The notes under the pieces were generated by a model. It was given only the letters and a program-made list of their open reading frames with translations, made no database searches and was not told the origin of the DNA. From positions 310,001 through 374,000 of the forward strand of contig CT868063.1 in assembly GCA_000165425.1 (NCBI GenBank): a stretch of 64,000 nucleotides of DNA, written 5' to 3'. This stretch comes from Paramecium tetraurelia. Its lineage: Eukaryota. Numbering within the stretch: position 1 is the stretch's first letter; every line of letters starts with the position of its first letter. The translations under genes were made by a program, and so were the position numbers. This document shows, in pieces, positions 22,787-27,200 of this stretch.

Positions 22787-23089
22787 AAATTATATTAATT
22801 CAGTTATTTATTCTTTTATACTTTTATATGCACAGCCATTTTCCTTTTTTTAACCAAATTTACTACTTTTTTTAAGTTCATCCCTTCTATCCTCTGTTTA
22901 TAGATATGGATTATTAAAGAAATAAATAGATAAAATAGATATTCAAATACTATAGAAGTTAGCTATATATTCTCTAATAAACTCAGAAAGATATCTCAAT
23001 AATAAAAAGAATTCATCCAATTTTTATGAAGACTTTTAGTATTTTAAATGATTTCAATTGATAATTTGCAACTATGACATTATATATAA

Positions 23090-24092
23090 TCACTACACTT
23101 TAATTCTATTCAAAACGCCGTGATTATCACAATGGCCATCATGAGGGAAGTGTAACATTTCATTTACTAAATAATCAATATGACCATTATGGATGACAAT
23201 TGGATGACCGCAATTTGGACCATGAAAATGTAATACTTTAGATATAGCAAATGGAGTTTCTCCACAATTTCCACCATTGCAAGCCAAACAACAATTATTA
23301 ACAAGCTATTTTGATTTACAACAACATTGTTCTTATTTACAATCTATACATTTTATCAAATCATATTATTTTTAGGAATCAAAATGCTGATGATCTTTTA
23401 TTGGCGCACAATTTTATTATTATTATTAATCTATCAAATCGTGCAACTCAATCCTGCCAGTTTCTAAATATTATTAATCAAATATTTACATTCATTATAA
23501 TTATATAATCGTCCATTAAATAATATATCAATGTGATTAGAATGAAAAATTTAAGGATGTGAAGCTGTAAAAAATATTCTTAAATCTGCTGAAATTTAAT
23601 TGATTTCTTAGAGATTGATGAATGAATCTGTATTTTCTATTTTTTTATGAATTTTCTAATGTTTTTTTAAACTACTCTTATAAAGAAAAGTTCTATTGCA
23701 TTCACACACAAAACTCTATCGTTATATTTTATGCTTATTTTGATGTTATTAATAATTTTAGTTAGTTATGAATTGTTTTTAACAAACGTCACAAGTGAAA
23801 GGCTTCTGTCCTTTGTGCTTGAATTAGTGTCTTTTTAGATTTGAAATTTGGGAGAATGTTTAATTGCACTCTGAACAGTTATATGGTTTTTCTCCAGTGT
23901 GAATACGATCATGCTTTTATAAGGAGGAATATTATCTAAACTATTAATTACAAGTCACACTAGTAAATTATCGATAAAAACTAACCATTTATAGGGCTTT
24001 TCCCCTGAATGGATTAATTAATGTTCTTATAAAGCCCGCTTTTATTTAAAGGCTTTATCGCAAGCATCGCAAATAAATTCTTGCTAATTCAT
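23090..24092 (-). CDS. C2H2 zinc-finger transcription factor (5 fingers) with His/Cys-rich C-terminal repeats
   Basis: [34 protein letters not shown] linkers; frame continues across a 26-nt intron into HFHGPNCGHPIVIHNGHIDYLVNEMLHFPHDGHCDNHG. Confidence 0.85.
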
Positions 24093-24220
24093 ATATATAT
24101 ATTAATTAAATTAAAATTGATTATCCCACCTTATGCAATAAAAGTATTATTCAAAGCAAATTGATGGTGATATTGCAAAGACCTTTTGAACAATAGATGT
24201 ATATAAAGTCTAAAATATAA

Positions 24221-27200
24221 TCAATTTTCATTGTATTACGCACTTCGTTCAGCCTCATTTTGATTCTAAAGTTCCTGCTTGAGTGCTTCGATATTAAGGA
24301 ACTTAATTCCCTTCTTCCTATTCCTTATTGTTCTGATTTTTCCTTAGATGAAGATAATACTAGACATCTAACCACTATAATACGGTGTCTTCTTAAAGAA
24401 TTTATAATAATCATGGATAAGGTCCTTGCCTTTATATGAACTCGATTCCAAACTAATGATGATTTAAATTCATACTCTTTTACTCCATATTTTAATTCGA
24501 CGGACAGTTTAGTCAAACTAACTATTACGTCATGAAATAGATATCCCATTAATCCCTGTTCATCTTCATAAAGTGGGATGTTTAAAGCCCTCAAGAAATT
24601 GGTTTTATTGGCGGGATCCAAAAGTTCCTTGACTGGAACTCCAAAACATATTGCTATCTCTGAAGATAACTTCCAAAACTACTTATAATTCAGGAACCCA
24701 GTTCCCTTGGGATCATATTATGCCCAATAGTTCAGCACATCATGTAATTGATATTTAGATATTGCACTCTATTCTGATTTCACATGTTCTTCATATGCAC
24801 CAAGTATCGAAGCTATAAATAAATTGAGTATGACTAAAGAAAAAAGTAGATGGAAACTAATATAGTAAGCATATGCCCAATATGTTCCGCATCCATTGAA
24901 ACCATGTTCTTAGTAATCATAATAGTCCTTAATGTAGATACATGCGAAGTCTGGTGTTCTTCTGTGAACCGAATCAACCAGCAAGGCCCACCATTATTCT
25001 GAACTTGCTACTCTAATTAATGAAAACATTGCTGTCGTAAATTTTCTAAGATGAAGATCAAACCCTTCTATATAATTCTAAGGTCTCAAATAACCTAATA
25101 GATCCATCCCCAAAGAGGCATAGATAAAAAGAAACAAAGCCATAATGAATATCATAGATAGAGCAGAAGGTATGACTGAAAATATTGTATTAAATAGTTT
25201 CTCTAACTCTGGAAAACGCCTAAAAATATATAGACAAGTACCTAATTATATAGTAGTTTCTTAATAATTGAAATGCTACTGATATTGCTGTGCAAGATCT
25301 CAGAACATAAAAATTGTCAGACAGTTCCTGGAGGATGAATAAATCAAAAAGATTAAAAATGATTCCAAAAAAATCTATGATTAAAAAGACATCTCTTTTT
25401 TACCACTATTTTACAATGAATCTGACAGTAATTTCAACTGCAGATATCAAAATGCAATATTAATTAATTTCTATTAAGATATTTCGAAATATCTTATTTT
25501 GTCTTGTATAAAATAATGATAGAATGATTGTATTTAAGGCTATGATTGTATGCCAAAAGTATTTCAGTTTCTTACTCTCTGCAATAAAATAAAATAACTT
25601 TATCACCTTGTTCTTTGGTAACTCATAATTAACCCTAGGAGTAAGGTAATGTATACTGTGTTTAATCTGAAGCCACTCTCTTTGGTTGCCATTTAATTCT
25701 GACATACCTTAAGCCTTTATTTTAGTTTCCTAATATGTATTTACAACCAAACTGATAAACATATTGAGCATACAGATATTCCCGATAAAAAAAAACACTT
25801 AAAAATATACAGCCCACCATCTATTATGATTGTTTATTGGAGCAAGGTCTTTTCCCCTTGAACTCCATGTATCTATTAGGATTGGAAGCCAAGCCTCTGT
25901 AGTTGCGGTAACAAACAAAGTTAAAGCACTATCAAATACATTATCAAATCCCAGTATTTTATTTACCCATGAACCACCATTATCCATACAATCCCATTTA
26001 TCCTTTACTTTGTATTGCAATTCACTCGATATTGAACAATAATATAGGCCACCTTTCAATAACTTTGTTGCAAATATTCCATATACAAGGAGAATTACAA
26101 AACAAAATATACTTAATTGAATCATGGTTAAAAATGCTTTCATTAAAGCTTAAGAAACATAATTGATATTCGAATTTAATTCTGCCCCTATTCTTATGAA
26201 TTCCAAAATTCTCAAACTTGAAAAAAGGTTAAAGATTAATTGATTGTAATTGAAGATAGCCACAATGTCTATTGTTGTAATTATAAAATTGAGTGCATTG
26301 TAAGGTGACTTTTGTAAATATGAATCCTCTCCAATGAATAAGCCATCAGAAACAATGTTTAAAAAGATTTGAATGCAAAATAAAATGGTATTGACAGAAT
26401 GTATTGTTTTTAGGACTGCAAACAAATCAGATTCAGGATTTAAAAAAGGAGTGAGCAGCATAGTTCTAATAACACATATCAAGACCAAAATAATTAAGAA
26501 CACTCTAAAGGGTAAATTCTCAATTAAGGACTTAACACGAAGTCTAATTGGGTTCTTTTCAGAAAATATAAACAATGTTTTATTCTGGAATTCTTATTGA
26601 TTTACAACAACATCAGATTTAATTACTTATAATTTGCTTTCTTGTTATTAATTGTCTTGGCAAAGGTTCAAAAATTCATCAAGATTCTAAAAGGAAGCCT
26701 GTCCTTGTAATTAATTTATCATTGAATTTGTCTTTCTCTTTTGTCCAATTACTTTTAACTCTTTTAAATAAATAGACTCCTTCTTCTTCTCATTTCTTTT
26801 TTATTTCACTATATTTAACTACAATTTCGATACTGTGTTCTCAATCTATGTCTATTTAATAAAATCATACCTACATTTTCTTTGTAGAAAATAACTTTTT
26901 ATAGTCTATTGGTTTCAAACTTGTCTAAACGCTTTCAATATGCTAGCTGAATTCATTTAAAAAGACAGCAGTTAGTAATCTAATAAAGAATATTTATCCA
27001 AAAATCACACTTATAATGTAAAACACGATTGATGCTTCAGTGTGTCTACCATATTTATACATTGTAATGTGCCACTCTTCATTATAAAATATATTGACTA
27101 CTGCCATTATTGAAGATCCTAAATCATTATAATATATTGTCATGTTATTTTCTGACATTTGGTATTACAATAAATGTTTGCCAAAGATTGACATTAAAAA

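Follow-up and report, generated by a model that had tools for sequence, protein, structure and literature searches.

The minus strand of a 64,000-nucleotide window of Paramecium tetraurelia DNA (assembly GCA_000165425.1, contig CT868063.1, positions 310,001 to 374,000) carries, at window positions 23090-24092, a three-exon gene whose product joins five Krueppel-type C2H2 fingers to a C-terminal module of two repeats rich in potential metal ligands. Judged from profile matches, this module is homologous to, and collinear with, the whole of a ~115-amino-acid (aa) bacterial His-rich protein. Its conserved ligand set, the proteins to which it is fused and the genes beside which its bacterial relatives lie make it highly probable that the module binds a transition metal, and the set of partners points to zinc. 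We regard the gene as a candidate for a nuclear C2H2 factor that couples zinc status to transcription through the module, a reading that we hold with slightly better than even confidence.

Read in the ciliate genetic code (code 6), the spliced coding sequence of 951 nucleotides (nt) yields 316 aa, all 316 of which are identical to the database protein GSPATT00007102001 (XP_001436288.1, UniProt A0CDM4; P0187 below), whose sole annotation is "C2H2-type domain-containing protein". An earlier sequence-only reading had placed a repeat A, a Cys cluster and a repeat B in frame behind five Kruppel-type fingers, with an intron at 23464-23489. Its coordinates, intron and quoted peptides are exact, as the spliced product is P0187 itself, and the fingers and the His/Cys-rich part do form one annotated gene, in which repeat A lies in an uninterrupted exon-2 frame with fingers 2-5. 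No stop codon follows the fingers, intron 2 is canonical and the frame is kept across it. Because intron 2 interrupts repeat A, the exon 2/3 junction falls within the module. The window is AT-rich, with a G+C content of 24-32%. The features of the gene are as follows.

23986-24092, minus strand: exon 1, with the ATG at 24092-24090 and finger 1; its phase-2 end splits the first Cys codon of finger 2
24077-24009, minus strand: finger 1, in exon 1
23960-23985, minus strand: intron 1, 26 nt, GT..AG, inside finger 2; its excision gives exactly P0187
Ending at 23899, minus strand: finger 2, in exons 1-2, split by intron 1
23490-23959, minus strand: exon 2, a single open frame with the rest of finger 2, fingers 3-5, a linker and the first part of repeat A
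23883-23815, minus strand: finger 3, in exon 2
23799-23731, minus strand: finger 4, in exon 2
23712-23647, minus strand: finger 5, in exon 2, with a C-x-C knuckle
23429-23574, minus strand: repeat A, aa 165-204, spanning intron 2; a degenerate copy of bacterial repeat 1
23464-23489, minus strand: intron 2, 26 nt, GT..AG, interrupting repeat A between predicted strands 3 and 4
23090-23463, minus strand: exon 3, with the end of repeat A, the linker, the Cys cluster, repeat B, the tail and the TGA stop at 23092-23090
23375-23428, minus strand: linker, aa 205-222, whose conserved C211 lines up with the NPxxC linker motif of the bacterial family
23264-23359, minus strand: Cys cluster, aa 228-259, with nine Cys (231, 234, 239-241, 250, 251, 254, 259)
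23117-23236, minus strand: repeat B, aa 269-308, an intact copy of bacterial repeat 2
23041-23089, minus strand: probable 3' untranslated end, with strand-specific RNA reads down to ~23041 and none below

Transcript evidence comes from the raw reads of two oligo-dT RNA sequencing runs, which contribute 18 and 67 reads of 58 nt each. All reads derive from the same strand, with the first mate on the plus strand, and they cover 23041-23322, 23417-23463 and 23652-24074. The transcript borders and strand fit the gene model, and one X21 read bin stops exactly at the exon-3 border, 23463.

The finger array belongs to the C2H2 (Krueppel-type) class by its Pfam scores, which exceed the gathering scores of PF00096 and PF13465. 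Exon 2 reaches 55.9 bits against zf-C2H2 (cut-off 25.2; E 3.6e-15) and 59.5 bits against zf-H2C2_2 (cut-off 40), and exon 1 reaches 26.6 bits against zf-C2H2 (E 7.4e-06). An AlphaFold2 model built on a 33-sequence alignment contains five beta-beta-alpha units, with helices at residues 18-29, 46-57, 74-85, 102-113 and 130-145, and together with the Pfam matches it bears out the claimed number of fingers. Fingers 1-4 are canonical and are joined by Krueppel-type linkers, HKGQKPF among them. Finger 5 has a C-x1-C knuckle (C121, C123) in place of C-x2-4-C and still takes the beta-beta-alpha shape in the model. This C-x-C spacing is kept in all eight proteins of the Paramecium aurelia complex in the 90% identity cluster, and the older paralogue P0032 has C-x3-C.

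A two-repeat module shared with small bacterial proteins

Of the 157 residues in the C-terminal region of the protein (aa ~160-316), 15 are His and 12 are Cys. The sequence-only reading quotes repeat A, the Cys cluster and repeat B correctly, and its description of the repeats as His/Cys-rich suits repeat B; repeat A does not fit it, having 4 His and having lost most ligand positions. The two repeats are mutually related, as their local alignment score of 55 compares with a shuffle mean of 25 (standard deviation 4.7) and is reached in 0 of 2000 shuffles. Repeat A retains H175, H178, D180, L187 and H200, and its N-terminal HxH..C part is gone. These five residues and C211 of the linker fall in columns conserved at 90% or more in the 33-sequence alignment.

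Repeat B carries the ligand set H-x-H-G-x-x-C-G-H ... H-x-x-H-x-D-Y-L ... H-x-x-H-x-x-H-C-D-x-H-G. Fifteen of its columns are invariant from bacteria to Paramecium in the 33 aligned sequences (H271, H273, C277, H279, H284, H287, D289, V292, L296, H297, H303, C304, D305, H307 and G308), and 11 of these are His, Cys or Asp. The proposed likeness of repeat B to small bacterial His-rich proteins is real: a near-length search of 5.8 billion proteins returns 25 bacterial or metagenomic matches of ~97-135 aa (about 115) with E-values from 4e-13 to 6e-7, alongside a single ciliate-labelled relative, Halteria P0005, at 68% identity. The bacterial proteins consist of two tandem ligand-rich repeats with a short Cys-bearing linker between them. 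When a family profile built from 30 bacterial proteins is scored on a 193-protein set, it matches the Paramecium protein twice, in the order found in the bacterial protein. The match to repeat B pairs aa 256-311 with profile positions 64-114 (52.9 bits, 5e-16), and repeat B is 58-74% identical to bacterial repeat 2.

Structure prediction shows an all-beta fold of two four-strand units common to the modelled bacterial protein and the modelled Paramecium module. The bacterial protein P0014 is predicted to form two four-strand beta units, with strands at residues 19-47 and 82-110, at a predicted local distance difference test score (pLDDT) of 84 and a predicted template modelling score of 0.76. 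The AlphaFold2 model of P0187 has a four-strand pattern like that of P0014 in repeat A (strands at 172-200) and repeat B (281-313), with pLDDT ~72-80 over the two and ~77-80 in repeat A. A structure search of the ESM Atlas aligns aa 161-313 to three bacterial clusters of the His-rich family at template modelling scores of 0.62-0.65, normalised by target. Among solved structures, Foldseek against the PDB gives no match (best E 1.3), nor does VIA-align across 48,161 chains (best Z 3.0); a PDB profile search returns a single chance-level match, a capsid protein (E 0.77), and a PDB sequence search with the module finds no relative. The absence of a PDB fold match does not prove that the predicted fold is new.

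Family databases do not describe the module. Exon 3 matches no Pfam family at E<=1 and no NCBIfam family, P0014 matches no Pfam family at E<=1e-4, and the NCBIfam searches with P0014, P0017 and P0187 give nothing relevant to the module. Members of the bacterial family, such as Planctopirus ephydatiae Spb1_00260 (P0014), and the three ESM Atlas clusters bear the automatic name "threonine dehydratase", which finds no support in sequence, predicted fold or gene context and is probably an annotation error that has spread.

Relative to the bacterial family, the Cys cluster is an insertion in the linker. No family model in Pfam (E<=1) or NCBIfam matches exon 3, which encodes the nine Cys of aa 228-259. 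In the ciliate-like metagenomic proteins P0054, P0108, P0138, P0153 and P0167, the inter-repeat linker is enlarged to lengthy segments rich in Cys, in which CxC and CC motifs are numerous, and because of these expansions the eukaryotic insert is a variable, metallothionein-like region.

Fusion partners and bacterial gene neighbourhoods

An exhaustive HMMER scan of 1.84 billion cluster representatives retrieves 248 clusters at E<=1e-3. Fifty-six module proteins, comprising 53 of the 59 listed proteins of at least 150 aa together with P0033, P0034 and P0014, were scanned with Pfam at E<=1e-4, and their partner domains are distributed as follows.

C2H2 fingers: 12 of 56
ArsR-type helix-turn-helix (HTH): 3 of 56 (P0033, P0034, P0119)
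Cation_efflux (cation diffusion facilitator, CDF): 4 of 56, two of them also with a zinc-transporter dimerisation domain (ZT_dimer)
ABC-3 permease: 1 of 56
No family found: 36 of 56

P0033 matches the NCBIfam ArsR/SmtB metalloregulator model at 2e-23. The best NCBIfam matches of the ABC-3 fusion are the zinc permeases AztB and ZnuB, both below their cut-offs. P0046, a repetitive protein of 1411 aa listed by phmmer, is treated as spurious, as the family profile gives no match to it.

The C2H2-module architecture extends beyond the gene studied here. It is found in eight proteins of the aurelia complex at 85-97% identity, and four of the five listed species have two such proteins each; the older paralogue P0032 (60% identical) keeps it as well. 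The ohnologue of the gene in P. tetraurelia is GSPATT00016566001. The same two parts are combined in proteins assembled from the transcriptomes of a ciliate, Pseudomicrothorax dubius, and of two amoebozoans, Cavostelium apophysatum and Nematostelium gracile, and in a protein of the brown alga Choristocarpus tenellus. A word-index homologue search with the module region alone recovers only two Paramecium clusters.

Four amoebozoan or unnamed eukaryotic C2H2-module proteins (P0038, P0053, P0056 and P0097) have an extra conserved N-terminal segment before the fingers, and, unlike the ciliate branch, they have C-x4-C fingers and a fully ligand-rich repeat 1. Because they differ from the ciliate proteins in these three respects, they suggest either a deep divergence or independent fusions. 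The Halteria grandinella-labelled protein P0005 is a separate case. It is 131 aa long, comes from an 803-nt contig, has a gene model without fingers and shares 68-70% identity with the exon-3 product, a likeness that takes in the tail as well as the variable Cys cluster. It is thus closer to the Paramecium exon-3 product than is the paralogue P0032 (59%), which is surprising for a spirotrich, and the short contig may be mis-assigned or a contaminant.

In bacteria, relatives of the module are encoded in 473 genome stretches when one genome per species is scanned (tblastn E<=1e-3). The best 80 loci were analysed, and they include Planctomycetota, Acidobacteriota, Pseudomonas, Erwinia, Burkholderia and Bradyrhizobium. 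The nearest and second-nearest open reading frames (ORFs) on each side were taken by simple longest-ORF calling, and 150 neighbour ORFs were scanned at E<=1e-5 and 150 at E<=1e-8. The counts below leave out 14 second neighbours of L074-L080, and the first neighbours of L076 (downstream) and L077-L080 were scanned at E<=1e-8 alone, where ArsR domains can escape notice.

ArsR-type gene directly upstream on the same strand: 32 of 80 loci
ArsR-type gene downstream: 1 locus (L057)
Fur-family gene: 7 loci (L008, L017, L024, L033, L037, L044, L062)
ZIP transporter: 7 loci (L008, L017, L024, L033, L037, L062, L078)
ZnuA: L075
ABC-3: L042
cobW/COG0523: L040
TonB-dependent receptors: L053, L054, L067
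NicO-like: L006, L021
ArsP_1 permease: L047, L050, L072
Cu/Zn superoxide dismutase: L029

The ArsR and module genes are closely spaced, with a gap of at most 30 bp in 22 of the 32 pairs and a 4-bp overlap in three, and this spacing fits co-transcription of the ArsR gene with the His-rich gene. Twenty-seven of the 32 ArsR neighbours were aligned, and all 27 keep D96, H98, H109 and E112, in the pattern D-x-H-x10-H-x2-E. One source gives the alpha5 site motif of SmtB-type sensors as DXHXAXXXXXAXXHXXE(H) and states that such sensors let go of DNA at high metal (PMC9241078). By alignment, these ArsR neighbours have a complete alpha5 metal site with the spacing of the SmtB-type motif.

At six loci (L008, L017, L024, L033, L037 and L062), a divergent ZIP gene is followed on one strand by a SmtB-like ArsR gene, the His-rich gene and a Fur-family gene. 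This cluster occurs mostly in metagenome-assembled genomes labelled as planctomycetes, and the placing of two metalloregulators around one small metal-binding protein is an unusual operon layout. Taken together, the fusions to ArsR/SmtB, CDF and ABC-3 domains and the neighbouring genes support a tie between the module and zinc or transition-metal homeostasis.

Proposed metal sensing, rival explanations and known systems

Under the reading that we favour, P0187 would act in the nucleus and bind specific DNA sequences with its five Krueppel-type C2H2 fingers, and its C-terminal half (aa ~160-316) would be the eukaryotic version of an undescribed two-repeat His/Cys-rich metal-binding domain. The His, Cys and Asp residues of repeat B would bind Zn(II), possibly Ni or Co, and the few ligands retained in repeat A and the Cys cluster might contribute. 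Folding or packing of the module would depend on metal occupancy, and occupancy would switch the activity of the finger array, whether at the level of DNA binding, activation, stability or localisation. The outcome would be a coupling of cellular zinc status to the transcription of transport or buffering genes, a functional likeness to MTF-1 or Zap1 achieved with a different sensor domain. Because the module has been fused to DNA-binding domains twice independently, to the ArsR HTH in bacteria and to C2H2 fingers in several eukaryotic lineages, the comparison suggests that it adjusts its DNA-binding partner according to metal occupancy. Metal-responsive regulation by this candidate is plausible.

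Several points weigh against this reading. It is based on comparative evidence. The bacterial ArsR partner has, as judged from its residues, a complete sensing site of its own, and because of this the free-standing bacterial protein may, by analogy, be a zinc sink induced by excess metal and not a sensor. A sink-type or structural domain on a transcription factor need not be a switch, and the sink possibility weakens the step from binding metal to sensing metal. The NicO-like neighbours at two loci and the ArsP_1 permeases at three temper the case for zinc specificity. Within the protein, most ligand positions are lost from repeat A, and the profile match there, which pairs aa 169-216 with positions 20-66, is weak in the 193-protein set (9.2 bits, independent E-value 0.018). 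Ciliate-like proteins with a better-kept repeat 1 (P0132 at 38.7 bits, P0047 at 20.0 and P0136 at 13.7) bridge this weak match. The Cys cluster is kept in the eight orthologues and P0005, is reduced in the paralogue P0032, and is modelled as disordered by AlphaFold2 (pLDDT <50). The C-x-C knuckle of finger 5 is non-canonical. Finally, RNA depth is zero over 23464-23651 in both oligo-dT runs, the stretch that bears on continuity across intron 2, and likewise over 23323-23416 (X22), and the 18 and 67 reads contain no splice joints and are too few to show or exclude splicing. The apparently strong AT-richness of the uncovered stretches may account for the missing reads.

The protein could instead be a constitutive transcription factor whose module has a structural role, serving for instance in dimerisation or in the binding of a partner. 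Zinc would stabilise such a domain and stay bound at all times, whatever the metal status of the cell. We consider this unlikely, though deserving of real weight. Many small His/Cys domains are purely structural, the 15 invariant columns of repeat B are what a folding scaffold would show, and the predicted fold is compact and all-beta. A merely structural domain would not be expected, however, to recur specifically on ArsR/SmtB, CDF and zinc-type ABC permease proteins, nor to lie next to SmtB-like, Fur-family, ZIP, ZnuA and COG0523 genes. The improbable alternative that the module is a metal sink or buffer, a metallothionein-like His-rich store that sequesters metal or delivers it (for example to its own fingers) without any transcriptional switch, draws on the same bacterial loci. 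There, the gene lies downstream of a SmtB-like repressor with a complete alpha5 site, so that induction under metal excess is expected, and smtA is likewise induced under SmtB by metal excess to yield SmtA. The Cys-rich insert of the ciliate proteins also resembles metallothionein clusters. Buffering requires abundance, however, and one copy on a low-abundance DNA-binding protein offers little capacity, and the occurrence of natural fusions with DNA-binding partners in both bacteria (ArsR HTH) and eukaryotes (C2H2) favours a regulatory link.

It is less probable still that the module senses a metal other than zinc, such as Ni, Co, Cu, Cd or Fe. Ni and Co are also bound by His-rich sites, the neighbours include NicO-like genes (L006, L021) and a Cu/Zn superoxide dismutase gene (L029), and the alpha5 site type is common to Ni/Co sensors such as NmtR, according to PMC9241078. 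Most of the specific partners are nonetheless zinc-typed, namely ZIP at seven loci, ZnuA, ABC-3 (with AztB/ZnuB as best NCBIfam matches), cobW/COG0523, the Fur-family neighbours and the CDF proteins with a ZT_dimer domain. It is very improbable that the gene model is an artefact and that fingers and exon-3 part belong to different transcripts or products. The stretch 23464-23651 is without RNA reads or joints, and the gene model of the Halteria relative P0005 has 131 aa and no fingers. Against this, the open frame of exon 2 runs on past the fingers into repeat A without a stop codon, intron 2 is canonical and in frame, and the fold of the module spans it. The fusion is also conserved in eight orthologues or paralogues, in the older paralogue and in transcriptome contigs of three other protists; the X21 read bin ends at 23463 exactly, and the P0005 model comes from a contig of just 803 nt.

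Known systems offer partial parallels to the candidate zinc-responsive factor. Collinearity with the bacterial ~115-aa proteins runs through repeat 1, the Cys linker and repeat 2 (Paramecium aa ~165-311). The bacterial proteins differ in being free-standing or attached to ArsR, CDF or ABC-3 domains and in having two ligand-rich repeats, whereas the ciliate version has the C2H2 fusion, a degenerate repeat 1 and the Cys-rich insert. MTF-1 has a C2H2 array of six fingers and a C-terminal Cys cluster needed for the metal response. The Paramecium protein resembles it in combining a C2H2 array with a Cys cluster, a likeness by analogy of architecture. It has five fingers instead of six, descriptions of MTF-1 include no His-rich two-repeat module, and the two are unlikely to be orthologous. 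Zap1 of Saccharomyces cerevisiae and Loz1 of Schizosaccharomyces pombe also pair C2H2 fingers with His/Cys-rich zinc-responsive regions, again by analogy of architecture. Their sensing regions are fingers or short accessory segments, unlike the separately folding beta-rich domain shared with bacteria that is predicted here; for Loz1, 10.1101/2024.09.20.614115 reports an accessory domain in which His, Lys and Arg are abundant. We claim homology to MTF-1, Zap1 and Loz1 for the fingers at most and do not assign the protein to their families.

The closest functional parallel is the set of ArsR/SmtB-module fusions (P0033, P0034 and P0119), which carry a DNA-binding domain and the two-repeat module in one chain. 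They differ in binding DNA through a winged HTH, which has an alpha5 site of its own, instead of C2H2 fingers, and in being bacterial repressors. Streptococcal Pht proteins consist of short repeated beta-strand units with an HxxHxH zinc site and act in zinc scavenging, as set out in PMC3842936. The HxxHxD of the module, placed in short beta-strands, recalls this site by resemblance only; Pht proteins are surface proteins, and no link to them emerges from Pfam (exon 3 at E<=1, P0014 at E<=1e-4), the PDB profile search or the fold searches (best Z 3.0). The identifier GSPATT00007102001 and four short module motifs are absent from the roughly 8.4 million literature texts searched, a body that leaves aside subscription papers and supplements. 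In abstracts of papers on His-rich proteins, ArsR and zinc, on the Zur regulon, ZIP and Planctomycetes, and on ciliate zinc or metallothionein factors, no description of the domain occurs. The abstracts of the ciliate papers name AP-1/bZIP factors only as potential regulators of metallothionein.

The module has no counterpart in Pfam, NCBIfam or the PDB, yet its relatives are encoded in several hundred bacterial genome stretches and lie within zinc-homeostasis loci. Zinc-sensing transcription factors have been characterised in animals (MTF-1), fungi (Zap1 and Loz1) and plants (bZIP19/23), and we know of no zinc sensor in ciliates or most other protists. The candidate would be a metal-responsive factor of the C2H2 class with an undescribed domain as its basis. 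If the module is a sensor, it would be a new metal-sensing domain common to bacteria and eukaryotes, and it would explain a widespread bacterial operon of a SmtB-like repressor and a His-rich protein. With rather less than even confidence, we put forward the broader proposal that the two-repeat module is an ancient, portable Zn(II)-sensing domain, paired or fused with SmtB-type repressors and zinc transporters in bacteria and with C2H2 arrays in ciliates, amoebozoans and stramenopiles. Were this so, a family of zinc-sensing factors would be available for protist lineages without a described sensor, with the Paramecium gene as its tractable founding member. Paramecium has RNA interference by feeding and good genomics, which would, in the case of a sensor, give an experimental handle on zinc homeostasis in protists.

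Neighbouring sequence and base differences at the locus

No second copy of the gene occurs in the 64-kb window (1 match, 0 expected). The adjacent upstream gene, on the same strand at 24151-25299 (minus), has an Ion_trans domain (PF00520, E 2.6e-18) at its end and is the C-terminal part of a voltage-gated-type cation channel. The intergenic interval 24075-24215 has no RNA reads in the two runs, and reads restart at 24216. At five positions (23246, 23287, 23741, 23923 and 24290), RNA reads and DNA-like contigs from other runs of the same species share base differences from the window. At 23923, for example, both contig sets and all 16 RNA reads show a G>T difference. Such shared differences look like strain polymorphisms rather than RNA editing.

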